DNA of 51,041 nucleotides. Origin: Anaerolineaceae bacterium UBA5838. Its GTDB lineage: Bacteria; Chloroflexota; Anaerolineae; Anaerolineales; Anaerolineaceae. The translations under genes were made by a program, and so were the position numbers. Under the pieces are notes generated by a model that was not told where the DNA came from, searched no databases, and was given only the letters and a program-made list of their open reading frames with translations. Shown here piece after piece: positions 2,572-28,318 of this stretch (position 1 is its first letter; each line of letters starts with the position of its first letter). Location: assembly GCA_002432795.1 (NCBI GenBank), contig DJGU01000092.1, positions 203 to 51,243 on the forward strand, given 5' to 3'.

Positions 2572-3510
2572 CTAAAGCCCGCACGACATATTTTCGAGAC
2601 AATGCGTCGCTGAAATTGCCGCAGCTGCTCCCATGCCAGCTGATGTAACAACCTGTCGGAAATGCGGGTCGGCAATTTCACCTGCTGCAAAAACACTCTT
2701 TTTACTGGTTTCCAGATGCTCATCAATTTTCAGCGTTCCGCCTGGTTCCATCTCGAGTTGCCCTTCAAAAAAAGTAGTATTCGGGCTGTGACCTATGAAA
2801 ATGAACAGTCCTTCAGTGGGCATCAAGCTCTTTTCGCCTGTTTTGACATTTTCGATCAAGAGCTCTTCCACACCCTCACTACCCCTGATTTCATTGACAA
2901 CCGAATCAAAAAGAAAACTGATCTTTGGGTTGGTTCTGGCCCGGTTCTCCAGGATGGCTCCGGCTCGCAAGGTGTCGCGCCTGTGAATAATTGTCACGCT
3001 GTGAGCAAACCGTGTCAGGAAGAGGGCTTCTTCGAGGGCGCTGTCGCCGCCGCCCACAACATGGATGTCTTTGTCCTTGTAGAACCAGCCATCGCAGGTC
3101 CCGCAGTACGAAACGCCTCTCCCGATAAATTCCTCTTCTCCAGGAACGTTAAGCCTTTTGTTGTTTGCCCCCATGGCAATGATCAACGCGTCAGCGGTAT
3201 AGTCCCCGCCATACACGCTGACTGTGTAGGGATGCCTGGAAAGATCTACAGCCTGAACTTCGTCAACTAAAAACTCCGCTCCAAAAGCTTTCGCCTGCTC
3301 CTCAAAGAGTTGACCAAGCTCCATACCCCCAACCCCTTTTGGGAAACCAGGATAATTTTCTATCGTATGAGTCAACGAAGATTGCCCATAAAGGACCATG
3401 CCAGTAATCACCAGGGGCTTCAATTCTGCCCGGGCTGCATAGATCGCAGCGGATAGCCCTGCAGGGCCAGCCCCCAAGATTATCAATTGTCTGTGTTCAA
3501 TCAAACCCAT
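2572..3510 (-). CDS. trxB: Thioredoxin-disulfide reductase
   Basis: FAD motif GAGPAGLSAAIYAARA, redox-active CGTC in SYCGTCDGWFY, NADPH motif VVGGGDSALEEALFL. Length is 312 aa. A strong GGAGAGG Shine-Dalgarno lies upstream of the ATG. Confidence 0.9.
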   Translation of the reverse strand: MGLIEHRQLIILGAGPAGLSAAIYAARAELKPLVITGMVLYGQSSLTHTIENYPGFPKGVGGMELGQLFEEQAKAFGAEFLVDEVQAVDLSRHPYTVSVYGGDYTADALIIAMGANNKRLNVPGEEEFIGRGVSYCGTCDGWFYKDKDIHVVGGGDSALEEALFLTRFAHSVTIIHRRDTLRAGAILENRARTNPKISFLFDSVVNEIRGSEGVEELLIENVKTGEKSLMPTEGLFIFIGHSPNTTFFEGQLEMEPGGTLKIDEHLETSKKSVFAAGEIADPHFRQVVTSAGMGAAAAISATHCLENMSCGL

Positions 3511-7781: not shown

Positions 7782-9815
7782 ATGTCAAATCATTTAGTTA
7801 ATTCCACGTCACCTTATCTGCTGCAACATGCTGAAAATCCGGTTGATTGGTACCCCTGGGCGAAAGAATCGCTGGAAAAAGCGCGTGTTGAGGATAAACC
7901 CATTTTCTTAAGCATTGGATATTCAGCCTGTCATTGGTGCCATGTGATGGCACATGAATCATTTGAAGATCCTGAAGTTGCTGCGATTATGAATAACAAC
8001 TTCATCAACATCAAGGTTGATCGAGAGGAACGCCCCGACCTGGATAGTATTTATATGTCTGCCGTTGTCAGCTTAACCGGTCAGGGAGGTTGGCCAATGT
8101 CGGTTTTCTTGACCCCGGAACTTATCCCTTTTTATGGAGGGACATACTTTCCTCCGCAGCCTCGATACGGTATGCCTGCTTTCAAAGATGTCTTGATTCA
8201 GCTTGCCGGGTTATGGAAAGATGACCGGGCTCAGATTCTGCAGGCCGGGAAAAATTTGGTGTCTGCCCTATCGAGTAAATCGGAAAGAGAAACTTCATCC
8301 GGATCAATTTCAAAAGAAGGATTGGCAAAAGCAACGCGTGAGTTGATCAAGACTTATGATTGGCAGCATGGTGGATGGGGAAGAGCGCCTAAATTTCCGC
8401 AGCCCATGGCACTTGATTTCCTTCTACGTCGTCATGTCGGGGGTGATGCCGGAGCGCTGCAGGTGGTTGCGCATGCCTTAAATGCCATGGCGCGTGGGGG
8501 AATGTATGATGTTCTTGGTGGAGGGTTCTCCAGATATTCAACAGACAATGATTGGCTGATTCCTCACTTCGAAAAAATGCTCTACGATAATGCCCAATTA
8601 AGCCTGGTCTACCTACATGCCTGGCAAATTACCAGGAATCCCCTGTATCGTAAGGTAGTCGAACAAACTCTCGACTTTGTAAAAAAAGAAATGCTTGATC
8701 CAGATGGAGGGTTCTACTCCAGCCTGGACGCTGACTCAGAAGGCATCGAAGGGAAGTATTACGTTTGGACCCTTGATGAAATCAGAAAGGCATTTGGAGA
8801 AAAAGACGACCTCTTTGAATCCGCCTATGGGATAACATCTGCAGGGAATTGGGAAGGCAAGATCGTTCTTCGGCGCGTAATGAGCGATTCGGAATTAGCA
8901 AGTCAGTTTAAATTGAATGTTGATGAGGTTCAATCCAGGCTTGCCGAACGGCAAGCCCAACTACTCACCGTGCGTAATAATCGCATCAGGCCCGGAACGG
9001 ATGACAAAGTGCTCACTTTTTGGAATGGGTTGATGCTCGCGACTTTTGCGGAAGCTACCAGAGCTTTTAATAACGCTGAGTATCTGCACATTGCTCAAAA
9101 CAATGCCAACTTTATCCTCACCTCTTTACGAGTGGAAGGCAATCTTCGCAGGGCCTGGAGGAAAGGGAGAGTGAGCGCAGAAGTATTCCTCGAAGACTAC
9201 GCGGCACTCATCCTGGGGTTGATCGAACTTTACCAGACAGACTTTGATAACCGCTGGTACCAGGAAGCATATGCACTAACCCAGGAAATGATTAACCTTT
9301 TCATCAATTCGAGAGGTGGCTTTTTTGATACAACCAGCGAAGCGGAAACTATCATTCAGCGACCTCAGGAGTTGCAAGACCATGCAACCCCTTCTGGAAA
9401 CGCCCTGGCGGTTGAAGCGCTGCTCAAAATGGCTGCCTTCTCGGAAAATGAAGAATACCACCAGCTTGCGGATAACGCATTTGGATTAATTGCCGATTTA
9501 TCTGCTGATTATCCGACGGCTTTCAGCCGCTGGCTTTCAGCTGCAGATTTCTATCTTAATCAAGTCAGGCAAATTGCTCTCATCGGAGAATTAGCAAACG
9601 GAAAATCAAAAATGTTCCTGCAAGAAATACGCCATAATTTCCTGCCAAACACAATAGTGGCTGTGTCAACATCTCCTCCCCCACATGGTTCGCCAAAACT
9701 GCTATCAGATCGACCAATGATTGGTGAAACAGCGACAGTTTATATTTGTGAAGGGTTTGTGTGCAAACAGCCGGTAATCACACATGAAAAATTACACGAA
9801 TTACTAAAAGAATAG
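7782..9815 (+). CDS. Thioredoxin-domain protein, YyaL/DUF255 family (N-terminal Trx fold plus six-hairpin domain)
   Basis: [28 protein letters not shown] and 677 aa. An AAGGAG Shine-Dalgarno lies upstream. Confidence 0.85.
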
Positions 9816-9938: not shown

Positions 9939-10847
9939 TTATTTTTCTAACTTCACTTCATGCCCACCAAATTTGTTTCGCATGGCTGCCAGCAACTTAT
10001 CGGCAAAAGCTTCTTCTTCTCGTGACCTTATGCGTCGCTGTAGGGACAAGGTAATGATTGGAGCAGCGACATCTAGATCAATTGCCTCAAAAACCGTCCA
10101 GCGACCCTCCCCAGAGTCTGGAACCCAAGCTTTAATTCCTGACAGGTTTTCATCCTCAGCCAAAGCGCTTGCCGTCAGATCAAGTAGCCAGGACCGCACC
10201 ACGCTGCCATCCTGCCAAATTTTGGCAATTTGAGAAAGGCTCAGGTCAAAGTCCTTCTTCGCCCGAAGGATCTCAAACCCTTCGGCATAAGCTTGCATCA
10301 AACCATATTCAATCCCGTTGTGGATCATTTTAACGAAGTGCCCGGATCCAGCTGGACCCACGTGTCCCCATCCTTTGTCAGGGGCAGGCGCAAGTGTTTC
10401 AAAAATCGCTCGGTATTTTTCGACAAATTCTGTTTCCCCGCCAATCATCAAGCTGTATCCTTCAGTTAAACCCCAAACTCCACCACTTGTTCCAACATCG
10501 ATGAAATGAATTCCTCGATCACTCAGTTCCTTCCCACGGCGAATGGAATCTTTGTAATTCGAATTTCCGCCGTCGATCACCGTGTCACCCGGTTCAAGCA
10601 AGTCTGCTGCTTTTTTGATTGTGTCATCTGTGATTTTTCCTGATGGCACCATGACCCATACCAACCTTGGCGCTTCTAATTCTTCAATGAGGGCATTGAG
10701 CGTGCGAGCACCTTCAGCGCCCGATCTTTCAACCGCCTGAATTGAAGCTTCATCTATATCAAACGCCACAACCCTGTGCCCACCTTTCAACAGGCGCGAA
10801 GCCATATTTGCGCCCATCTTCCCTAAACCAATCATTCCAATATCCAT
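9939..10847 (-). CDS. gnd: 6-phosphogluconate dehydrogenase, decarboxylating (short YqeC/Gnd-like form)
   Basis: N-terminal IGLGKMGANMASRL Rossmann motif, GGNSNYKDS, GSGHFVKMIHNGIEYG signature. 302 aa. Confidence 0.85.
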   Translation of the reverse strand: MDIGMIGLGKMGANMASRLLKGGHRVVAFDIDEASIQAVERSGAEGARTLNALIEELEAPRLVWVMVPSGKITDDTIKKAADLLEPGDTVIDGGNSNYKDSIRRGKELSDRGIHFIDVGTSGGVWGLTEGYSLMIGGETEFVEKYRAIFETLAPAPDKGWGHVGPAGSGHFVKMIHNGIEYGLMQAYAEGFEILRAKKDFDLSLSQIAKIWQDGSVVRSWLLDLTASALAEDENLSGIKAWVPDSGEGRWTVFEAIDLDVAAPIITLSLQRRIRSREEEAFADKLLAAMRNKFGGHEVKLEK

Positions 10848-11817: not shown

Positions 11818-12582
11818 TTAAACTTCTCCTTGGTGCAAAGCCCCAATCTGCTCGTTAGTCATCCCTTCAACGATGGGCAGGTCAGACTGCTCAAACAAAC
11901 GCGTTTCAGAACCAAAAGTCATCATATGACCTGATTTCTCTGCTTTGGTTCTCAAATAAAATTCATTGTACTGATTGGGTGGGATGACCAGAGGAATTCT
12001 TCCGGTGATATTAATGCCATATCGTTTTAATTCTTCAATTTTCTTGGGGTTATTCGTCATCAGTTGGATGGATTTTACTTTGAGTGAGTCGAGCATATGA
12101 GCAGCTGAACTGTATTCACGCTCATCATCCCGGAACCCCAAGGCAAGGTTCGCCTGAACCGTATCAAAACCCTTGTCCTGAAGCCCATAAGCCCTGATTT
12201 TATTGACCAGACCGATTCCTCGACCTTCCTGGCGCATATAGAGCAGGATTCCGTTTTCCATCTTGCCAATGGTCTTAAGGGATGTTTCCAATTGGTCCCT
12301 GCAATCGCAGCGCAAAGAGCCGATTGCATCTCCTGTCAGACACTCGCTGTGAACCCTGACAGGAACATTCTCGGCGCCGGTAATATCGCCATGAACGAAA
12401 GCGGCGTGTTCTTCCTTGTCTCTGTTATTCCAGAACGCAACCACCTGGAACTGCCCAAATCGCGAGGGCAATTCAGCAATTGATGCAATCCTCACACATA
12501 TATGGTCAGCTCCATATCCATCGCATTCGTGAGCTCGGTTCTCATCAAGGATCTCTTCAATTTGTAAATGAGTAAGTGACAT
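11818..12582 (-). CDS. ribA: GTP cyclohydrolase II (stand-alone, with a C-terminal extension)
   Basis: HSECLTGDAIGSLRCDCRDQLE zinc/cysteine motif and YMRQEGRGIGL. Confidence 0.85.
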   Translation of the reverse strand: MSLTHLQIEEILDENRAHECDGYGADHICVRIASIAELPSRFGQFQVVAFWNNRDKEEHAAFVHGDITGAENVPVRVHSECLTGDAIGSLRCDCRDQLETSLKTIGKMENGILLYMRQEGRGIGLVNKIRAYGLQDKGFDTVQANLALGFRDDEREYSSAAHMLDSLKVKSIQLMTNNPKKIEELKRYGINITGRIPLVIPPNQYNEFYLRTKAEKSGHMMTFGSETRLFEQSDLPIVEGMTNEQIGALHQGEV

Positions 12583-12602
12583 ATTTATTCTCCTTATTTA
12601 GT

Positions 12603-13283
12603 TTAAATTATATAGCGCAGGACTAATCCGTCATCGTCATATTGTTGAATCGAATCCAACTTTAATTGTTTTGCATATTCCCTTTCAAACCCATCACTGC
12701 TCGCGAAGGTTGGAGCGCTCGACCCACCAAAGATTAACGGCGCAATATAAATGTTTATCTCATTTATCAGATTTAGCTTGAGTAACTCTTCGTTTAAGGT
12801 TCCACCGCCTTCTACCAGCAGTTCTTTTACCCCAAGATTACCAAGTTGAGTAATGGCTTTTTTGAGGTCTACTCGCAAGCCTTCTGTCACAAACACGTTG
12901 ACCCCAAGATCGCGAAGTTCACGGATTTTTTCCGGAGCGGTTTTCGTGGTCGTAAAAATTACAATTTTGGCAGGTCCATTGTTTAGAAATCGGCAATTCC
13001 GGTTCAAATCTGCGTTTGTGATGATTCCAACCTTGATTGGGTTTTCTCCTTTTCCAGCAGCAAGCCGCGCTTTCCGCAGAGACTCCGTCTTAACTGTCAG
13101 CCTGGGATCATCACCAAGAAGCGTATGACCACCAACCATGATCGCGTCACTCGCAGCACGCAATTGATCAACTCTCATCATATCCAGGGGGGAAGAGATC
13201 AATGCTCCACGCCTGGCTATGGTATCCGTTTTACCGTCTGCGGTCATCGCCACATTGAGAGTGATATATGGCACATTTGTCAT
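12603..13283 (-). CDS. RibD C-terminal-domain reductase (2,5-diamino-6-ribosylamino-pyrimidinone 5-phosphate reductase-like; no deaminase domain)
   Basis: ITLNVAMTADGK and LLVEGGGTLN are typical of the RibD_C / dihydrofolate-reductase-like fold. 226 aa. Confidence 0.7.
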   Translation of the reverse strand: MTNVPYITLNVAMTADGKTDTIARRGALISSPLDMMRVDQLRAASDAIMVGGHTLLGDDPRLTVKTESLRKARLAAGKGENPIKVGIITNADLNRNCRFLNNGPAKIVIFTTTKTAPEKIRELRDLGVNVFVTEGLRVDLKKAITQLGNLGVKELLVEGGGTLNEELLKLNLINEINIYIAPLIFGGSSAPTFASSDGFEREYAKQLKLDSIQQYDDDGLVLRYII

Positions 13284-14184: not shown

Positions 14185-14934
14185 TTAACTTCTTTCCCTG
14201 ATCAACTTAGCCGCGCTTGAATCAACATGCCAGATAATATTTCCTTGAGCCGGCTGGATCCTTTGAACTGGAATATTCTCCGGGTCAAGATGGTCTGATA
14301 ATGCGATTTGGAGCATTCTTGCTTTGGCTTCACCCACAATCAGAAAGATTACATTTCTGGAAGCGTTGAAAACCATCGGTGTAAGCGTGACCCGCGCTGC
14401 CGGGCGGTCTTGACACGATGCATTAACCTGTATGACCGGGCTCACATCCTCACCTGGGCTAATTCTGCCTGGAAACAGCGAGGCTGTATGACCATCTTCA
14501 CCCATCCCCATCAGCGCGATATCAAAAACCGGCCAGGGGGTTTTGCCCTTGGCAAAATTCGAAAGGACATGAATATAGTCTGACACTGCATCCTGAGGGC
14601 TAAGTTCCCCTTTAATCCTGTGGATATTTTCAGCACTTGCAGGAATCTTACTCAGAAAATTGTCAAATGCTTGTCTATAATTGCTGTCCGAATACTCTGG
14701 GGGAACACAGCGCTCATCTCCCCAGAAAAAATGGACCTCACTCCAGGGAACAGAATAATGGCTTTGGTTTTGAGCAAGTGCCTCATACACACCAATCGGA
14801 GAAGAACCGCCAGAAAGCCCGATATTTGCAGTTCCGCGCAGATGTACAGCCTGTGTGAGGATCTCAGCAATGCTTTCAGAAGCAGCATTGTTAAGGTCTT
14901 CAACACTATTATGAATCCATACCGTTTTTTCCAT
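14185..14934 (-). CDS. pgl: 6-phosphogluconolactonase
   Basis: GLSGGSSP, FFWGDERCVP, GMGEDGHTASLFPG. Confidence 0.85.
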   Translation of the reverse strand: MEKTVWIHNSVEDLNNAASESIAEILTQAVHLRGTANIGLSGGSSPIGVYEALAQNQSHYSVPWSEVHFFWGDERCVPPEYSDSNYRQAFDNFLSKIPASAENIHRIKGELSPQDAVSDYIHVLSNFAKGKTPWPVFDIALMGMGEDGHTASLFPGRISPGEDVSPVIQVNASCQDRPAARVTLTPMVFNASRNVIFLIVGEAKARMLQIALSDHLDPENIPVQRIQPAQGNIIWHVDSSAAKLIRERS

Positions 14935-15082: not shown

Positions 15083-15251
15083 AGTTACTCCTATAAGATA
15101 AAATACTTGTATGACCTGCACGTATCCCGACGTGGTAAGGTTGGGTTTAATTACTTCGTTGAGTCTGTAAGAAATCTTCATCCGGAAGCATCCAACAAAA
15201 AATCCAGACGCAAGCGGAGAACTATAACCAAAGCGTATGAGGAGAAAAGTA

Positions 15252-16709
15252 ATGTCTGAATCAACCACAATTATCATTTTTGGAGTCTCTGGTGATCTTG
15301 CCCAGCGCAAATTAATTCCCGGATTATTTAACTTGTTTCAGAAGAAAAAGCTTGAAAGTAATTTTAGAATTGTCGGGCTGGCTGGACGCCCTTGGCAAGA
15401 TGAAGATCTTCGCGCCACCGCAAGGAAATCGATAGACTCCTTTGCCGGGTTCAAGGTAGAAAATGATAAATGGAATGAATTTGCTGGAAAACTATTTTAT
15501 ATTTCCGGAGATTTCCGCAATGAACAATCCTATAATACGCTGTCAGAGAAGCTGGAGTTTTTGGAAAAAGGAGCTGCAAACAGATTGTATTACCTCGCGA
15601 CTCCGCCAGATTTCTTTATCGATATCATTGAAAACCTTGGGAAAACGAATCAGGTTGATGAGTTGGAAGGCTGGAGAAGGGTAGTTATCGAAAAACCTTT
15701 CGGGACTGATTATGAATCAGCAAAGAAACTCAACTCCGAGATTCACAAGGTTCTTAACGAGGAACAGATCTACCGCATTGACCATTACTTGGGAAAAGAA
15801 ACTGTTCAAAATATCTTGGTAGCTCGATTTGCAAACACAATTTTTGAACCGATTTGGAACCGCAACTATATTGACAATGTTCAAATAACTGTCGCTGAAA
15901 AAGTTGGTTTGGAACGCCGCGCAAAATACTACGATAAAGTAGGTGTTGTTCGGGATATGTTCCAAAATCATTTACTCCAGTTGCTTTCTTTAATTGCTAT
16001 GGAACCCACAGCTTCTTACAAGGCTAATGACCTGCGTGATGAAAAAGTTAAAGTTATCAAATCCATCAGGAGAATTCCTTTTGAAAAAGTAGAAAGCGAA
16101 GCGGTTCGGGGTCAATACCGCGGCTATAGCCAAGAAGAAGGCGTATCGGAAGGAACACAAACGCCCACCTTTGCAGCGATTCGTTTCTATATCGACAATT
16201 GGCGCTGGCAGGGAGTTCCATTTTACCTTCGCTCCGGGAAAAGGATGCCTGAAAAAGTAAGTGAAATTGTCATCCAGTTCAAGAAACCACCCCATCTCAT
16301 GTTTCCGTTGCCTGAAGAGTATGAATTCTCAGCCAATCGTCTTACCCTTTGCCTGCAACCTGATGAAGGAATTCACCTGAAGTTTGAGACGAAAGTTCCG
16401 GACACGATTGCTGAAACCCGGTCGGTGGATCTTGAGTATCATTATCGGGATGTGTTTGGCAAAGATGCCATTCCTGAAGCCTACGAAAGGTTATTGTTGG
16501 ATGCGATTACCGGAGATGCATCATTATTTACCCGTGGGGATCGTAGTGAACTGGCCTGGGAATTAATTGATCCGATCCTTCAAGCATGGGAAAGCCCGAA
16601 CGCTCCACCTTTGCCCATATATGAACAGGGAAGCTGGGGTCCCATTGAGGCAGATATGCTGCTAGCAGGGGATTCTCTCAAATGGCAGCGTGGATGTGGA
16701 AATCATTGA
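15252..16709 (+). CDS. zwf: Glucose-6-phosphate 1-dehydrogenase
   Basis: IIFGVSGDLAQRKL, RIDHYLGKE, RDMFQNHLLQLL. The start is set at the ATG at 15252, preceded by GAGGAG. The track start at 15237 is the alternative. Confidence 0.9.
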   Translation: MSESTTIIIFGVSGDLAQRKLIPGLFNLFQKKKLESNFRIVGLAGRPWQDEDLRATARKSIDSFAGFKVENDKWNEFAGKLFYISGDFRNEQSYNTLSEKLEFLEKGAANRLYYLATPPDFFIDIIENLGKTNQVDELEGWRRVVIEKPFGTDYESAKKLNSEIHKVLNEEQIYRIDHYLGKETVQNILVARFANTIFEPIWNRNYIDNVQITVAEKVGLERRAKYYDKVGVVRDMFQNHLLQLLSLIAMEPTASYKANDLRDEKVKVIKSIRRIPFEKVESEAVRGQYRGYSQEEGVSEGTQTPTFAAIRFYIDNWRWQGVPFYLRSGKRMPEKVSEIVIQFKKPPHLMFPLPEEYEFSANRLTLCLQPDEGIHLKFETKVPDTIAETRSVDLEYHYRDVFGKDAIPEAYERLLLDAITGDASLFTRGDRSELAWELIDPILQAWESPNAPPLPIYEQGSWGPIEADMLLAGDSLKWQRGCGNH

Positions 16710-16723
16710 TAAAGGAAATCGAT

Positions 16724-17431
16724 ATGCCTGATCACACGGAAATAGATTTATATAACTACGACGAATTCGTTCCTGAAAAATTTGAGCGTTGGATGAGATT
16801 TGACGATAGCCCACCGGTGGGAAAACTGGTGCCGGATTTTCCCTTATGGAATTTGGATCGATCCACAACCAGTTTGAAAACTGAAATCACTAAACATGCC
16901 TACACCATAGTCGAGTTTGGTAGTTTTACCTGACCATACTGCGGGCTGGCGTGCCCAGCCATGAATAAAGTTGCTGTGGATTTCGAAAACAGTGACATTG
17001 GATCGGTTTTTATCTATACCCATGAAGCCCATCCAGGCGAAAACTATCCCCATTTAACGAGTATGGATCAAAAGTTCCGTCACGCCGAGGCACTTCGTGA
17101 TGTTTATGGTGTTACACGGCGGATACTTCTGGACGCTTTGAATGGTGCGTGCCACAGGCACTTTGGTTCCATGCCAAACATGACCTGGATATTCAACCGC
17201 TCCGGGATACCTGTTTATAAATCCGATTGGTCAGATTCCCACAGCGTGAGGAACGCCCTGGAGTATTATCTGGAAATCCCCAATCGCAGAAAAGCCGGCG
17301 AGCGATTGGCTCCATTCCATGTGGAGCGCCTTGATTATCGCAACCAGGAAAGGGAGTTATTTTACGAGTCTCTGGAAAGGAATGGACCAAAGGCCGTCGC
17401 GGAGTTTCAAAAAGCTTTTCCATCAGGTTGA
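16724..17431 (+). CDS. Deiodinase-like thioredoxin-fold selenoprotein; UGA at 16931-16933 read as selenocysteine
   Basis: Track ORFs 16682-16933 and 16961-17431 are in the same frame, separated by TGA plus 9 sense codons. The joined sequence TIVEFGSFT-U-PYC...VFIYTHEAHPGENYP fits the FGSxT-[U/C]-P ... Y.xEAHP pattern of the iodothyronine-deiodinase-like family. A hairpin follows the UGA. The start is placed at ATG 16724, after AAGGAAA. Confidence 0.75.
16944..16960 (+). promoter_or_regulatory. Candidate bacterial SECIS hairpin for the UGA at 16931
   Basis: GGCTGG-CGTGC-CCAGCC is a 6-bp GC-rich stem with a 5-nt loop containing GU. It starts after a 10-nt spacer from the UGA. A possible 3-bp lower stem pairs CAT (16935-16937) with ATG (16961-16963). 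Confidence 0.55.
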
Positions 17432-17488: not shown

Positions 17489-17833
17489 ATGGTGGTACGC
17501 AGCGATTCCGGTTGGATAAACCTGATTAATTGCGAGCGTACATTGAGCAATCCCGTTTTTGCTGAGCTGTATGAGCTAATAGTTTCACTGTTGCCTGTTG
17601 GAGTAAAAGACAGCCGCTTTGAGTTTTGTGAGCAGGTAGAAGAACAAATAAAGGGAGTTGCAAACTTTACACTTGAATATGTTAGCGAGAATTTGCAAAA
17701 ATATGATGGGGGTACACCATTTTTAAAATGGGTATTGAATATTGCGGTACGGCAGTTGTTATACGAATTACGAGTTGAAAAATGGAAAATTGACTCAAAG
17801 GAGGAAGGCTTCCCACAAGTACCTGAAGAATGA
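17489..17833 (+). CDS. ECF-type sigma-70 factor, sigma2 (region 2) portion; ends at an in-frame TGA in the inter-domain linker
   Basis: TPFLKWVLNIAVRQLLYELRVEKW aligns with FTTWVYTIAVRFALTEIRRAKW of the intact paralogue at 30252-30887. Confidence 0.6.
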   Translation: MVVRSDSGWINLINCERTLSNPVFAELYELIVSLLPVGVKDSRFEFCEQVEEQIKGVANFTLEYVSENLQKYDGGTPFLKWVLNIAVRQLLYELRVEKWKIDSKEEGFPQVPEE

Positions 17834-17836
17834 CGC

Positions 17837-18082
17837 ATGATACTTTCTGAAAATGAGTTTTTGCAATTTACCCACAACTTGTTCAAACAAGAGCTTTCAG
17901 AGAGTCAACGAATCGCAATTCGCTCGATGGTGATGTTCAGAATGCCAAAAGAAGAGGTAATGCGATTATTACTGATGGAGCGTTGTGATTATTTTAAAAT
18001 GATCCATGATGCGCGCCTGAGAATTAAGCGGCGTTTACAAAATGATAGCGTCGTTGTTACAGAACAGCTGACAGACCTGTAG
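17837..18082 (+). CDS. ECF-type sigma-70 factor, sigma4 (region 4 HTH) portion; same frame as 17489-17833, ATG 3 nt after the TGA
   Basis: LSESQRIAIRSMVMFRMPKEEVMRLLLMERCDYFKMIHDARLRIKRRL aligns with LTEKQRTALMAVAIHGIPLAEVARSMNTERNALYKLLHDARLKLKRHM of the paralogue. Confidence 0.55.
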   Translation: MILSENEFLQFTHNLFKQELSESQRIAIRSMVMFRMPKEEVMRLLLMERCDYFKMIHDARLRIKRRLQNDSVVVTEQLTDL

Positions 18083-18123: not shown

Positions 18124-19089
18124 ATGGACAAAAATCAAAAGGTGGAAAACCTCGAAGAATTTAAAGCCTCCTTTTCCTATGGAAAGAGGTCAGACTTAAA
18201 TTTTAAATTCCTCAAGGATTTGTCATCAGAAGAAGTTGGCTCTTTTTTTTCAGACTTATTCGGAAAAATCGGGGAAACACTAAATGATGGAAATATCAAC
18301 CGCTTAGTGAATCAAGTTATTGAGTGGCAAACAAGTGTCTATTCAAAACCAGGAAGGTATCTTTATGCTGATGTCCCATTTTCTCCATTACAGAAACCCC
18401 TTTCCCAGTCTCGATTGGCATTATTAACTTCCAGCGGTCACTTTGTGGCAGGGGATGACCCAAATCCTCTTGGCGTGGAGAACATGACTCAGACCGAAGC
18501 TGAGTTGAGAATTTCTGAGTTTTTAAGGGCGGTTCCACAGCTTTCGGAAGTCCCAATTGACACACCAGAAGATTCTTTGCGGGTCAGACACGGCGGCTAT
18601 GATATTAGTGGAGCCGTGAAAGATCCCAATGTCAATTTTCCAATAACGCGTTTACGAGAGATGCAGTCTAATGGCATGATCGGAGATCTATTCCCGATTG
18701 CGTTTTCCTTTGTTGGCGCTTGCTCGCAGTTGCAGTTGACAAAGAGATCAGGTCCAGCATGGGTGAAAAAATTCAAGTCCCTGGGTATCGAGGGAATGAT
18801 CCTGGTTCCAGTCTGACCAGTCTGTCATGTGTCCGTGGGACACATTGCGCGTATGCTTGAAGAAAGCGGGATATCCACTGTGGTAGTTTGTTCAGAAATA
18901 TTTCGTGAAAAAATGCTGGCCATGAACTTGCCTCGCATCCTTTTTACCCATACCCCTTTAGGTCGACCTTTAGGTGCTCCAGGGAATAAAGCCACCCAAA
19001 CAGATATTTTAGTATCAGCACTTGAATTGCTTGAATCCGCTCAAAGGGGAGGTAGCGTGGTAGACAGCCTTGCTTCGTATTTCCGGTAA
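18124..19089 (+). CDS. Glycine/sarcosine/betaine/D-proline reductase selenoprotein B (GrdB) family protein; UGA at 18814-18816 read as selenocysteine
   Basis: Track ORFs 18124-18816 and 18829-19089 are in the same frame, separated by TGA plus 4 sense codons. The joined sequence is GIEGMILVPV-U-PVCHVSVGHIARMLEESGISTVVV...PRILFTHTPLGRPLGAPGN. The upstream RVRHGGYD..DPNVNFP fits my recollection of the GRDB family. A hairpin follows the UGA. Confidence 0.75.
18827..18845 (+). promoter_or_regulatory. Candidate bacterial SECIS hairpin for the UGA at 18814
   Basis: ATGTGTCC-GTG-GGACACAT gives an 8-bp stem with a 3-nt loop, or a 7-bp stem with loop CGUGG. It starts after a 10-nt spacer from the UGA, the same spacing as at 16931. 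Confidence 0.55.
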
Positions 19090-20639: not shown

Positions 20640-21347
20640 GTGAAAAAAGAAAACAAATTACCAGAAAATCAATCCTGGATGCACAGGAGTGGGAGGAAAA
20701 TCGCAGCTCTTGTTTTTTGGATGGCGGTTTTAGTTGGCTATCAGGTCTATGTTTATAAGAATGGGCTCACTGCAGTATCAGTAATGAATCAATTGCTGGG
20801 ATTAATGACCGATCGTTTTTGGGGTCCACTTATTTATATTTTGCTATATTCAATCAGACCCCTTATTCTCTTCCCTTCAACCTTTCTTACATTGGCAGGC
20901 GGTTTTCTTTTTGGACCAGTTTTGGGAGTCCTTTATACTATTGTGGCCAGTAACACTTCTGCCACAATTGCATTCCTTGTGGGGAAGTATTTTGGACAGG
21001 GAATTATTAAAGAGGGTTCCTCAAGCAATTTCATCCAAAGATATGCTGAGCGGATGCGCGAAAATAGCTTTGCTACTGTTATCGTGATGAGATTTATCTT
21101 CTTACCATATGATCTGGTGAACTATCTTGCCGGTTTTCTGCGGATCCGTTGGAGACCCTTTATGTTAGCTACTCTTCTTGGATCAATTCCAGGAACTATT
21201 GCCTTTATTTTGGCAGGAGCATCATTTGAACGATTTGAGGGCGGTGTGCCAAAACTCAATCCTGCGACATTAGCAGCTTCGATCATCATCTTTATCGGTA
21301 GTTTACTTCTGTCGCGATTCTTTAAAAAACGTGAGGAAATTGCATAA
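20640..21347 (+). CDS. TVP38/TMEM64 (DedA/SNARE-associated) family membrane protein
   Basis: Polytopic protein with an LILFPSTFLTLAGGFLFG core typical of the family. GTG start. The stop overlaps the next start (TAATG). Confidence 0.7.
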   Translation: MKKENKLPENQSWMHRSGRKIAALVFWMAVLVGYQVYVYKNGLTAVSVMNQLLGLMTDRFWGPLIYILLYSIRPLILFPSTFLTLAGGFLFGPVLGVLYTIVASNTSATIAFLVGKYFGQGIIKEGSSSNFIQRYAERMRENSFATVIVMRFIFLPYDLVNYLAGFLRIRWRPFMLATLLGSIPGTIAFILAGASFERFEGGVPKLNPATLAASIIIFIGSLLLSRFFKKREEIA

Positions 21348-22756
21348 TGAAAAATGAAAATTTCGAGAACATTGTTATTGGTGCTGGTTCAGGCGGGTTG
21401 ACAGTTGCGATTGGATTGGCAATGCAAGGTAAAAAGGTTGCACTGATTGAATCAAATCATGTGGGAGGGGACTGCACCAACGTTGGTTGCATTCCGTCAA
21501 AAACACTTATTCATCTTGCGGCAAATTACCAACCTGGAGATGATATTGGAAAGATACTGGAAAAAGTTACACAAAAAAGAGACGATCTTCGGATCAAAGA
21601 AACAGATGAAGTTGGAAAGATAGACAATCTTCATTTGATATTCGGTCAAGCCCGATTCACCGGTCCTAAAATGATCCGGATCAGCAGTGACGATAAACCA
21701 GCGAGAGAGATAACGGGGAAGAACGTCATCATTGCGACAGGCGCACGCCCACGATTGTTGGACATTCCTGGACTTCCAGTTGATAGAATGCTGACAAATG
21801 AGTCTTTGTTTGACATCACCACCATTCCCGATCACCTTGCCATAATTGGAGCGGGTATCATAGCGATCGAATTGGCGTTTGCTTTTCGCAAGTTAGGCAC
21901 AAAAGTGAGCTTAATCGCCCTGGATCCACGAGCCTTACCCACCTATAGCCCGGATGTCTCGGCAGCAATACAGCCAGAGCTTGATAAGTTAGGTATTGAA
22001 ACACACTACAATGCTACAGGGGACTCTTTTGATGAGAGCACACATACTCTCACAATACGTTCTGCTCAAAATACGTATCCATTAAATGATGTAGATAAAG
22101 TGCTTATAGCAATTGGACGGATTCGAAATATTGACAACTTAGGGCTCGACTCAGCGGGGGTTTTGTGGGGGAAAACCGGGATTATAGTCGACGGCTTTGG
22201 ACGGACGAACGTAAAAGGCGTATACGCAGTAGGTGATGTCACCCCTACATCTGCCTTCACACACTCAGCGAACGCACAAGGACGAAGAGTTGTCCAAAAA
22301 ATTGCTTTTCCGTGGCTGCCATTAAAAAAATCTGAACCATTGGTTCCCACCTCCGTTTTTAGTGATCCAGAAATTGCAACGGTTGGCCTTTCGCAGTCGC
22401 AAATTAACAAGAAATATCACAGCAATCTCATCAAAAGTTTGCGCGTTGATCTAAAATCGCTCGACCGGGGGTACACGGATGATGTTGAAAATGGTTTTAT
22501 CCATGTAGATGTAATTCGTCTGACTGGCAGAATTCTTGGGGCAACCATCGTCGGTCCACGGGCTTCAGAAATGATTTCATTTTTCACCCTGGCCATAAGT
22601 CAAAAGATCAGCCTTTACAAATTGTTCCCCCTGGTCTACCCTTACCCAACCTATTCGAGTGGCATATTGGATATTGCGGATAATTATCTCAAGGAAACAT
22701 TGCAAAACTTGCCGCTAGAACTGTTGAATTTCTTACGCTATCGACTAATGAAGTAA
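21347..22756 (+). CDS. Class I pyridine nucleotide-disulfide oxidoreductase (mercuric-reductase / dihydrolipoamide-dehydrogenase-like, substrate unknown)
   Basis: IGAGSGGLTVAIGLA FAD motif, redox-active GGDCTNVGCIPSK, a second Rossmann IIGAGIIAIELA, and a C-terminal dimerisation domain. Confidence 0.85.
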   Translation: MKNENFENIVIGAGSGGLTVAIGLAMQGKKVALIESNHVGGDCTNVGCIPSKTLIHLAANYQPGDDIGKILEKVTQKRDDLRIKETDEVGKIDNLHLIFGQARFTGPKMIRISSDDKPAREITGKNVIIATGARPRLLDIPGLPVDRMLTNESLFDITTIPDHLAIIGAGIIAIELAFAFRKLGTKVSLIALDPRALPTYSPDVSAAIQPELDKLGIETHYNATGDSFDESTHTLTIRSAQNTYPLNDVDKVLIAIGRIRNIDNLGLDSAGVLWGKTGIIVDGFGRTNVKGVYAVGDVTPTSAFTHSANAQGRRVVQKIAFPWLPLKKSEPLVPTSVFSDPEIATVGLSQSQINKKYHSNLIKSLRVDLKSLDRGYTDDVENGFIHVDVIRLTGRILGATIVGPRASEMISFFTLAISQKISLYKLFPLVYPYPTYSSGILDIADNYLKETLQNLPLELLNFLRYRLMK

Positions 22757-26932: not shown

Positions 26933-28318
26933 TCAGGATTTGGAGCGAATGTAACGGGTGACTCCCTTTTTGACAATCTCCGAAAAAGTTGGATAAATGA
27001 AAATCGTTTCAGCTAAAGCCTGCATACTGAGCTCCTGCATAATTGCCAAAGTGAAAAACTGAATCCATTCACCTGCATGCAAACCAATTGCATCAGCTCC
27101 AACAATGACATCGTTTTCATCCATGATTATCTTCAAGAATCCTTCTGTCTCGCTTTCAGTGATGAATCGGTCGACCGAATTGGTATCAACACGAGAAATA
27201 TTTACTTTTCCAAATTTCTTGATGGCTTGAGCTTCAGATAAGCCAACATGCCCAACTTCAGGCTCCATGAAAATTGCCCATGGGACTATGGAGAGATCAT
27301 TCTCGCGCTTATTTACCTGAAGAATATTATCGATACAGATATCTGCCTGAAAGGAAGCCATATGCGTAAATTTCGCTGGCGAGGTGACATCGCCACATGC
27401 ATAGATATTAGCCGCTGTAGTTTGCAAATATTCATTGGTTTTTATTCCATAAGGCAGGTACTCGACTCCAGCCTTTTCCAGTTGCAATCCATTGATGTTT
27501 GGCACCCGCCCTAGTGCGACAAAGATTTGTTCTGCAAAAAGGTCTTTCAGTTCCCCATCTTGATCAAGAACAAGTTTGATTTGACCATCAGAATTTTGAA
27601 TACAATTGGTCACCTCTGAGTTCGTAATAATCCGAACCCCATCTTCTTCAAGCGCTTTCGTGACCAAGGCGACAATTTCGGGATCCAGGGCATTTAATAT
27701 GGCCGGATTACGCTCAACAATCGTCACGTCTGTGCCAAACCTGGCCAGTGATTGTCCCAATTCAACTGAGATTACCCCACCACCAAGGAACACAACTGAC
27801 TTTGGCTGTTCACGCAATTCCCAAAAGTTTTCATTGTCCAGGAATTTGAGCATTTCACTGCCCTCATGCGGTGCCATGCGAGGGGATGAGCCAGTTGCAA
27901 TGACAAAATAATCGGATTCAAGAACGGAATCCCCAATCGATATGTGGTTTTGATCGATAAACTTTGCCCCGGAAGGATCAATAAACACATCAATCCCCAT
28001 GTCCTGGAAATGGGCAGGCTGTTCGTTGCGATAGACGCCTTGCACCACATCATCCACATGTGTCATGACTTTAGCAAAGTCAAACTCTGACCCCAGTTGT
28101 ACCATTGGGAGACCGTGGCTCTCAAATTTCTTTCTTGATTGGAATAGCCGCGCGCTGCTGATGAGCGTTTTGCTTGGAACACAGCCCGCGTGAGTACATT
28201 CCCCACCTATCTTATTCTTTTCGACCAATGCCACCCGGGCTCCCCGGCGGTGAGCAGTTAATGCTGCCACCAACCCACCTGAACCGGCACCAATTACTGT
28301 AATATCGTATTTTTCCAT
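26933..28318 (-). CDS. Class I pyridine nucleotide-disulfide oxidoreductase (second mercuric-reductase-like paralogue)
   Basis: IGAGSGGLVAALTA, redox-active GGECTHAGCVPSK, a second Rossmann FLGGGVISVELG, and a C-terminal YPTFSE in place of the usual HPTxSE. Confidence 0.85.
   Translation of the reverse strand: MEKYDITVIGAGSGGLVAALTAHRRGARVALVEKNKIGGECTHAGCVPSKTLISSARLFQSRKKFESHGLPMVQLGSEFDFAKVMTHVDDVVQGVYRNEQPAHFQDMGIDVFIDPSGAKFIDQNHISIGDSVLESDYFVIATGSSPRMAPHEGSEMLKFLDNENFWELREQPKSVVFLGGGVISVELGQSLARFGTDVTIVERNPAILNALDPEIVALVTKALEEDGVRIITNSEVTNCIQNSDGQIKLVLDQDGELKDLFAEQIFVALGRVPNINGLQLEKAGVEYLPYGIKTNEYLQTTAANIYACGDVTSPAKFTHMASFQADICIDNILQVNKRENDLSIVPWAIFMEPEVGHVGLSEAQAIKKFGKVNISRVDTNSVDRFITESETEGFLKIIMDENDVIVGADAIGLHAGEWIQFFTLAIMQELSMQALAETIFIYPTFSEIVKKGVTRYIRSKS

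Follow-up and report, generated by a model that had tools for sequence, protein, structure and literature searches.

Does the in-frame TGA at positions 16931-16933 of a stretch of the genome of Anaerolineaceae bacterium UBA5838 (contig DJGU01000092.1) end a short reading frame, or does it encode selenocysteine (Sec) at the active site of a longer protein? The whole stretch of DNA that was analysed, 51 kb in length, is called the window here, and positions are counted on it. The TGA falls between two open reading frames (ORFs), which an earlier note on this DNA had proposed to join into one selenoprotein. The analysis supports that proposal with high confidence. Positions 16724-17431 very probably form a single gene whose product is a cytoplasmic oxidoreductase of 235 residues, with a thioredoxin fold and with selenocysteine as the catalytic residue 70; it belongs to the bacterial deiodinase-like family (Pfam T4_deiodinase). 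The existence of one gene, the conserved UGA, a conserved hairpin of the selenocysteine insertion sequence (SECIS) type, and the family and fold of the product are established.

The two ORFs, 16682-16933 and 16961-17431, share a common frame with an offset of 279 nucleotides (nt), and nothing lies between them except the TGA and nine sense codons (16934-16960). When the stop is read through, the product reads ...KHAYTIVEFGSFT*PYCGLACPAMNKVAVDFENSDIGSVFIYTHEAHPGENYP... and includes ...TIVEFGSFT-U-PYCGLACPAMN...IYTHEAHPGENYP.... The earlier note had given the frame, the spacing and the read-through sequence, and all of these match the DNA exactly. It had also placed the gene start 14 nt after zwf, which is correct, and had the right 235-residue product, but its span began at 16682, which needs correction. 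The true start is almost certainly ATG 16724, because ATG 16682 falls within zwf and because the orthologues carry 63-72 residues, mostly 67-69, N-terminal of the TGA. The complete coding sequence therefore runs from 16724 to 17431 on the forward strand, where the features of this gene described below also lie, and it comprises 69 residues, Sec70 and 165 further residues before the stop TGA at 17429-17431. A Shine-Dalgarno-like AAGGAA, as read from the sequence, occupies 16712-16717, which is 6 nt 5' of ATG 16724 and 2 nt 3' of the zwf stop. The zwf gene itself (glucose-6-phosphate dehydrogenase, 15237-16709, forward strand) is identified by the Pfam domains G6PD_N and G6PD_C. It is probably co-transcribed with the selenoprotein gene.

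Conservation of the TGA among relatives is the first line of evidence. The joined protein, with U replaced by cysteine (Cys), was searched against 5.8 billion proteins and gave 1644 matches, of which the best 120 were examined. A scan of one genome per GTDB species gave 243 relatives; the best 80 were fetched (L001-L080) and make 81 sequences together with the window. The tblastn alignments cross the stop in all 80 genomes and cover query residues 1-235. The codon aligned to residue 70 is TGA in 80/80 of these genomes, and in 81/81 with the window, which greatly exceeds what chance would give, and two protein homologues (P0004 and P0010) have Cys (TGT) at this position. Homologues thus continue beyond the UGA and carry TGA or Cys at it, as had been anticipated. 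The carriers are almost all metagenome-assembled genomes (MAGs) of Chloroflexota, including Anaerolineae, Caldilineaceae, Ardenticatenaceae, Promineifilaceae, Litorilinea, Brevefilum and Bellilinea. A few carriers bear other labels, namely L034 (CP070790, 'Planctomycetota bacterium'), L058 ('Deinococcus sp.') and L028 ('Sulfomarinibacteraceae'). The window protein nevertheless shares 65-67% identity with theirs, which suggests horizontal transfer or contigs that were mis-binned or mis-labelled.

The protein is conserved on both sides of the codon. In 34 diverse members of the clade, Y10 N11 Y12 D13 F15 and E64 F65 G66 S67 F68 T69 upstream of the site and P71 Y72 C73 downstream of it are invariant. 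The entropy at codon positions 1/2/3 is 0.73/0.61/1.38 in the 18 codons upstream of the TGA and 0.76/0.52/1.57 downstream, and the coding signature upstream is indistinguishable from that downstream. These data bear directly on the possibility that the TGA is a sequencing error, or a nonsense mutation in a former Cys gene that has become a pseudogene. The next gene downstream (17489-18082) resembles such a case, with a TGA where its relatives have tryptophan (Trp) or leucine (Leu). In the present gene, the same TGA recurs in 81/81 sequences, which come from different species, and purifying selection acts on either side of it. These facts refute the explanation and make it scarcely credible; the sequencing error that the earlier note had listed as a danger to its claim is excluded by the same count.

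A second possibility is that the UGA terminates translation in the ordinary way, and that the locus yields a 69-residue N-terminal peptide and a separate 156-residue protein from ATG 16961, by termination-reinitiation or by independent initiation. Gene callers give exactly such a product of 154-160 residues in more than 100 protein clusters: among the best 120 clusters, 113 are 137-162 residues long (mostly 154-160), cover the C-terminal two-thirds of the query and mostly start at the first methionine 3' of the TGA. This methionine, Met80 (ATG), is itself nearly invariant (78/81). However, the nine codons that separate the TGA from the ATG show conservation at the protein level, with P71, Y72 and C73 invariant, and the stretch 5' of 16961 has no conserved ribosome-binding site, being the 3' arm of the hairpin described below. 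According to the structural model, the split would also cut a single thioredoxin-fold domain in two, with the U/CxxC motif and strand beta1 on one side and the remainder on the other, and full-length Cys forms do occur as one ORF. Termination with a second start is thus very unlikely. Seven of the best 120 clusters cross the site, with Cys (P0004, P0010), Leu, Trp or phenylalanine (Phe) there. Distant relatives show CPYC, CPFC, CPPF, CPPA or CPLC at this position, or sometimes serine, alanine or glycine. Full-length versions annotated with Sec were absent from the best 120 of the 1644 protein matches.

The second line of evidence is an RNA element directly after the codon. A GC-rich hairpin had been noticed at this place, and it takes the form of a bacterial SECIS (bSECIS) element at 16944-16960, which begins ten nt 3' of the UGA. 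In the window, it has a stem of 6 base pairs (bp) formed by the 5' arm GGCUGG (16944-16949) and the 3' arm CCAGCC (16955-16960), with the loop CGUGC (16950-16954) between them. The majority form in relatives is GGAUGGC-G(G/U)C-GCCAUCC, with a 7-bp stem and a G(G/U)C triloop. In the 81-sequence alignment (A2), 98.6% of the cells are paired, and shifting the 3' arm by 1-3 columns as a control lowers the pairing to 26-60%. Compensatory double changes occur at three of the seven pairs, and double-change cells number 23, where shuffling gives 5.0 +/- 1.6. No sequence breaks pair 22-34, which is A-U 61 times, C-G 19 times and U-G once. G-C is replaced by A-U twice and by C-G once. RNAalifold recovers the identical stem.

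The same changes can be followed in the protein. Leu(CUG)/Ala(GCC) alternates with Met(AUG)/Ser(UCC), and Gly(GGA) is coupled with Phe(UUC), so that the protein sequence covaries in a way that keeps the base pairs of the stem. Synonymous sites are frozen within the stem only. The alanine codon of the stem is GCG in 81/81 sequences, whereas a control alanine eight codons later uses GCC (40), GCT (18), GCG (11) and GCA (11). The glycine codon of the stem is GGG in 76/79 and its proline codon is CCA in 68/77, whereas the control proline directly after the UGA uses all four codons.

The bSECIS model calls for an apical loop of 3-9 nt, an upper stem of 4-16 bp, a G in the first two loop positions and a loop 16-37 nt from the UGA (PMC13188914). 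The window hairpin agrees with it, and its first loop base lies 19 nt after the U of the UGA (16 intervening nt). In the majority form, the loop starts 20 nt after the U (17 intervening nt), and G27 is invariant. Homologues that lack the UGA provide a natural control. In four of them (TGT, TGT, TTA and TTC at the site), only 4-6 of the 7 pairs remain and the folding free energy (dG) is -2.3 to -6.5 kcal/mol, compared with -8.9 to -11.6 in the TGA forms. The hairpin therefore decays where a Cys, Leu or Phe codon replaces the UGA. Two metagenome homologues, L081 (P0005) and L087 (P0012), have TGG (Trp) at the Sec codon and retain a perfect hairpin. A very recent mutation, variation between strains or a faulty assembly could account for this, and an intact stem is as expected for a very recent or erroneous single-base change. 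Translation with genetic code 4 was considered as the origin of these 'W' homologues and was rejected, since genuine TGG codons are present.

A second gene with an in-frame UGA lies 1.4 kb downstream. It is GrdB-like (PF07355), spans 18124-19089 on the forward strand, encodes 321 residues and has its TGA at 18814-18816. The ORF 18124-18816 matches Pfam GRDB, the model for selenoprotein B of glycine/sarcosine/betaine reductase, at 2.3e-12 (model positions 213-345 of 347), and the gene stays in frame for 90 codons beyond the TGA, with the motif VPV-U-PVCHVSVGH. Six related loci (L005, L006, L007, L020, L025 and L030) keep this TGA. The codon is followed by a 10-nt spacer and then by a hairpin at 18827-18845, AUGUGUCC-GUG-GGACACAU. 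The product is much shorter than the GRDB model region suggests for a true GrdB, and neither grdA nor grdC was found near the gene. GrdB (PF07355) is an experimentally verified selenoprotein family (2026 review, PMC13188914), and the GrdB-like gene is probably a second selenoprotein gene. These two unrelated genes have in common a UGA, a spacer of 10 nt and a stem whose small loop contains G, as a single SelB would recognise. Chloroflexota appear in lists of Sec-using phyla, and BSepDB (2026) holds 57,630 bacterial selenoproteins, those of Chloroflexota included.

The third line of evidence is the protein family. The UGA codon (U70) aligns with the Sec-to-Cys position of the iodothyronine deiodinases (Dio) in the structures 4tr3 (Dio3) and 9h48 (Dio2). 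E64-F-G-S-F-T69 (16913-16930), the FGSxT half of the active-site motif, is invariant in 34/34 members and aligns with FGSCT of Dio3 and FGSAT of Dio2. It is followed by Cys73 (TGC, 16940-16942), the predicted resolving Cys of the U-P-Y-C (UxxC) motif, which is invariant and encoded by TGC in 48 and TGT in 33 of the 81 sequences. Y98-T-H-E-A-H-P-G-E106 (17015-17041), the (V/I)Y-x-x-EAHP motif, aligns with YIEEAHPSD of Dio3 and YIDEAHPSD of Dio2, and its residues Y98, T99, E101, A102, H103, P104 and E106 are invariant among the 34 members. A second conserved Cys, in Cys143-His144 (DGACHRAYGSMPNM, 17150-17155), is invariant in the alignments. FGSxT-C(Sec)-P and YxxEAHP can be aligned column by column with Dio3 and Dio2, the Sec column included. 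The earlier note had recognised the arrangement FGSxT-[Sec/Cys]-P ... (V/I)YIxEAHP, with the UGA at the catalytic position of U-P-Y-C; both hold, EFGSFT-U-P and IYTHEAHPGE being invariant or nearly so across the clade.

Profile and structure comparisons point in the same direction. All 34/34 clade members match T4_deiodinase at E <= 0.01 (best 3.9e-10), and Pfam Redoxin and AhpC-TSA match all of them weakly to moderately. When the clade profile is compared with the PDB, mouse Dio3 4TR3 comes first (2.8e-6, residues 25-167), followed by Dio2 9H48 (5.6e-5). A profile search of 1.84 billion representatives found at least 1000 relatives, and ten distant full-length non-Sec relatives all score above the PF00837 cutoff (10/10, 29-66 bits). 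An AlphaFold2 (AF2) model was made for the natural Cys homologue P0004, with a predicted local distance difference test score (pLDDT) of 80.2. The model predicts a fold of the thioredoxin (Trx)/peroxiredoxin (Prx) type with an N-terminal beta-hairpin and two extra C-terminal helices. A Foldseek search with it indicates the TlpA/ResA/Prx/Dio superfamily, in which Dio2 and Dio3 give the longest coverage: TMq 0.57 and TMt 0.71 with a root-mean-square deviation of 3.5 for 9h48, and TMq 0.59 and TMt 0.72 for 4tr3. By Foldseek E-value, ResA/TlpA-type folds equal Dio, and the top hits are 3hdc, ResA and 4nmu (TMt 0.7-0.85). As judged from these alignments, the clade is a divergent branch of the bacterial deiodinase-like family in which U-x-x-C replaces the animal U-P-P-F. 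For Redoxin and AhpC-TSA, a common superfamily is clear, but membership in particular is not.

Several results weigh against the selenoprotein reading or against parts of it. The window protein alone, with U replaced by Cys, falls short of the family models: it scores 21.2 bits with PF00837 T4_deiodinase (gathering cutoff 27), 24.6 bits with Redoxin (PF08534; cutoff 26.6), 20.5 bits with AhpC-TSA (PF00578; cutoff 26) and 33.9 bits with NCBIfam NF038285 deiodinase_rel, whose cutoff is 250 and of which only positions 174-324 of 347 are matched. The deiodinase-like identity proposed in the earlier note thus stands at the level of the family and not for this sequence taken singly. The same is true of the hairpin: by itself, the window copy does not exceed shuffled sequences in stability (z = -0.06), and only the comparison with relatives makes it significant. 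Rfam gave no SECIS match, either for the whole window at gathering thresholds or for 16880-17040 at E <= 10. Bacterial SECIS elements are short and diverse, and this null result therefore carries little weight. Neither the window nor 1.2 Mb of related loci (+/-10 kb) yielded genes for selA, selB, selD or tRNA-Sec. No tRNA-Sec was detected in the window or in 57 related loci, and six-frame scans of 1.22 Mb for motifs of SelA (GDK..GGPQ), SelD ([C/U]GCK) and SelB (GHVDHGKT) gave chance matches only. Such an absence is expected for samples as small as the window and these flanks. In addition, zwf is directly upstream in only about 10-11 of the 81 loci, in relatives of the Anaerolineaceae type. 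Finally, we infer the chemistry of the protein entirely, and U-P-Y-C is unlike the U-P-P-F of animal deiodinases.

The missing machinery, together with the two close homologues that have TGG above an intact hairpin (P0005/L081 and P0012/L087), leads to a further explanation. The UGA might be recoded to Trp or Cys by a near-cognate or special tRNA, and the hairpin might be a generic stimulator of read-through or pausing. SelB-dependent insertion of Cys at UGA has reportedly been seen in another system. Nevertheless, the codon falls on the catalytic Cys/Sec position in a Trx-fold motif of the CxxC type; relatives have Cys there, and Trp would abolish the motif. The hairpin geometry and the loop G fit the bSECIS model, and the same geometry recurs in the gene of the GrdB family, which is verified experimentally (PMC13188914). 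The TGG variants are single metagenome contigs and are one nucleotide away from TGA. A general reassignment of TGA is rejected, since it is the terminal stop of 13/40 long ORFs in the window and hence the normal stop for a third of them. Recoding to another amino acid is accordingly quite unlikely, and selenocysteine remains the preferred reading of the codon.

Decoding as selenocysteine would follow the established bacterial mechanism. A ribosome would arrive at UGA 16931, and the hairpin 10 nt downstream (16944-16960), with the G in its small apical loop, would recruit SelB-GTP-Sec-tRNA(Sec). Sec would then be inserted in place of termination, while TGA would otherwise serve as an ordinary stop in this organism. 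In the folded protein, the U70 selenolate would sit at the N-terminus of helix alpha1 of the Trx fold, within the motif S67-x-T69-U70-P-Y-C73. The E101-x-H103 motif, common to animal deiodinases, would back U70, and S67 and T69 would flank it; S67/T69 and E101/H103 presumably correspond to the Dio3 residues proposed for a proton relay. The selenolate would attack an electrophile of the substrate, which may be a peroxide oxygen, a disulfide or sulfenyl sulfur, or possibly a halogen. C73 would resolve the adduct to a selenenylsulfide, and a thioredoxin or flavoprotein-disulfide-reductase system that draws on reduced nicotinamide adenine dinucleotide phosphate (NADPH) would reduce this bond again. 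Actual incorporation of selenium, the substrate and the reductant are predictions of this scheme.

The role that fits best is that of a thiol-dependent reductase or peroxidase in defence against oxidative or disulfide stress, for which we see roughly an even chance, the highest of any role considered. The U-P-Y-C motif, present in 81/81 sequences, argues against a deiodinase in function, though not against homology at the family level. Reductive dehalogenation as the role is given a low probability. Chloroflexota is a phylum known for organohalide metabolism, and it is conceivable, though improbable, that the clade is the bacterial counterpart of the thyroid-hormone deiodinases: a cytoplasmic selenoenzyme that reductively strips halogens from phenolic compounds by way of a Se-X intermediate, which Cys73 would resolve. 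If this were true, the clade would represent a corrinoid-independent route of dehalogenation and a living model of the ancestral deiodinase reaction.

The neighbourhood of the gene also bears on its role. Genes related to redox or NADPH metabolism in the window are, in order, a TrxB-like Pyr_redox_2 gene (2572-3510), a DUF255 thioredoxin-domain gene (7782-9815), a gnd-like gene for 6-phosphogluconate dehydrogenase (9939-10847), pgl (14185-14934), zwf (15237-16709), a VTT/DedA membrane protein directly followed by a class-I pyridine-nucleotide disulfide oxidoreductase (20640-22756) and a second such oxidoreductase (26933-28318). The genes found most often near the selenoprotein gene in the 81 loci encode a class-I flavoprotein disulfide reductase (21), an unannotated 190-residue protein (20), DUF3179 (16), VTT/DedA (15) and YjeF_N (13). 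The neighbourhood is redox-rich but not fixed, and the link to NADPH is weak, because the surroundings vary and zwf is adjacent in only about 11 of the 81 loci. The scanned example of the flavoprotein disulfide reductases found within 5 kb (21 loci) is MerA-like and has an HMA domain. Relative to the TGA, recurrent neighbours of either kind, reductase or DUF3179, lie for example at +507..+2334 in L071 and at +503..+1709 in L080.

These neighbours suggest another role for a selenoprotein, namely the handling of metals or metalloids (Hg, Cu, Se/Te), in which U-x-x-C would be a pair of metal ligands that works with a MerA-like reductase. In favour of it are the reductase within 5 kb in 21/81 loci, with its HMA-containing example, the VTT/DedA membrane protein and Pyr_redox pair in the window, and the proximity of DUF3179 in 16 loci. 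DUF3179 is listed as a selenoprotein family (UxxC/T), and several Sec families are linked to heavy-metal detoxification (2026 review, PMC13188914). Against this, the neighbourhood is not conserved across most loci, and the protein has the fold and the motifs (S-x-T-U ... E-x-H) of a Prx/Dio-type catalyst rather than those of a metallochaperone. In the window, the gene has no immediate neighbour with an HMA domain or for metal transport. Metal handling is thus a minor possibility, and the thiol-dependent reductase or peroxidase is retained as the preferred role.

The next gene downstream, which lies on the forward strand at 17489-18082, is itself split by a TGA (17831-17833) into the ORFs 17489-17833 and 17837-18082. 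Its product of about 190 residues is conserved, has no Pfam match and is encoded directly downstream in about 20 of the 81 loci. At the TGA position, close relatives have Trp (TGG; L003 and L004) or Leu, in a poorly conserved linker with no Cys nearby, and this TGA looks like a nonsense mutation, a pseudogene or a leaky stop rather than a Sec codon. A sigma/anti-sigma identity was considered for the conserved 190-residue and 101-residue downstream neighbours and was dropped, as they have no Pfam match. On the reverse strand at 11818-13283, genes for GTP cyclohydrolase II and a RibD C-terminal-domain protein, of the riboflavin biosynthesis type, stand between the pentose-phosphate genes and appear ordinary.

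The way in which the clade appears in public records follows from the UGA. The names encountered at NCBI and JGI are 'hypothetical proteins' of 154-160 residues, and their active site is missing, since gene callers end the protein at the UGA. These truncated records would not be rescued by any Pfam or NCBIfam model; one made for the purpose would correct the annotation of hundreds of Chloroflexota genomes. Unusually, the clade consists almost exclusively of the Sec form, and the evolution of its protein is constrained by an in-frame RNA element. Some carrier MAGs are assigned to Anaerolinea, Litorilinea and Caldilineaceae. Cultured representatives of these groups exist, and such relatives would offer tractable organisms for studying the function of bacterial deiodinase relatives. 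The finding of this gene leaves knowledge of how Sec is decoded unchanged.

How does the clade compare with systems already described? Bacterial 'deiodinase-like protein' selenoproteins (PF00837, UxxC) were first reported from the Sargasso Sea metagenome (Zhang et al. 2005, PMC1088965), and the family is listed in the selenoproteome reviews of 2022 and 2026 (PMC9312934, PMC13188914). Deiodinase-like UxxC proteins with Sec have thus been catalogued in bacteria since 2005, and the window gene is a new member or clade; BSepDB may already hold the Chloroflexota clade. In the literature, no description was found of a nearly Sec-only clade almost exclusive to Chloroflexota, of its extensions or of its SECIS that covaries with the amino acids. 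Nor did we find there an account of the systematic truncation of the clade in NCBI, JGI and ENA annotation, any work on selenoproteins of Anaerolineae, or an experimental function for bacterial deiodinase-family proteins. The published representatives are marine metagenome sequences and are compared here by description only. Like the clade, they are bacterial, have Sec in UxxC with a bSECIS immediately 3' of the UGA, are homologous to PF00837, have Cys homologues and are presumed to act in redox chemistry. In contrast, the Chloroflexota clade is almost always in the Sec form (80/80 genomes; 113/120 best clusters truncated at the UGA) and is marked by a conserved segment of its own at the N-terminus (YNYD-F-PEKF) and by a helical tail at the C-terminus (ERLDYR...NGPKAV-EF). 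Its PF00837 scores do not exceed the cutoff, and no NCBIfam or Pfam model is specific for it. The similarity to the NCBIfam NF038285 'deiodinase family protein' is local (residues 28-167) and covers only the C-terminal part of the 347-position model, and the window protein is not a member.

Animal Dio1-3 (4TR3 for Dio3 and 9H48 for Dio2) share with the window protein the FGSxT-U-P strand-helix junction, the (I/V)Y-x-EAHP motif after beta2, the Prx/Trx-like fold and the Sec nucleophile, at an identity of about 19-20%. They differ in having U-P-P-F where the window protein has U-P-Y-C with a resolving Cys at +3, and their SECIS is an element of the 3' untranslated region rather than an in-frame bacterial hairpin. 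The N-terminus of the window protein, as read from its sequence, appears hydrophilic and without a membrane anchor, and thyroid-hormone substrates are not expected in these bacteria. The selenoproteins of the TlpA/ResA/DsbE type and the 'Redoxin family' or 'Prx-like thiol:disulfide oxidoreductase' UxxC selenoproteins (PF08534, PF00578) likewise share the Trx fold, the N-terminal beta-hairpin and C/UxxC at the start of alpha1. In contrast to these, the window protein has the EAHP motif and about 45 extra C-terminal residues. It has neither a signal peptide nor a membrane anchor and is for this reason placed in the cytoplasm rather than in the periplasm.

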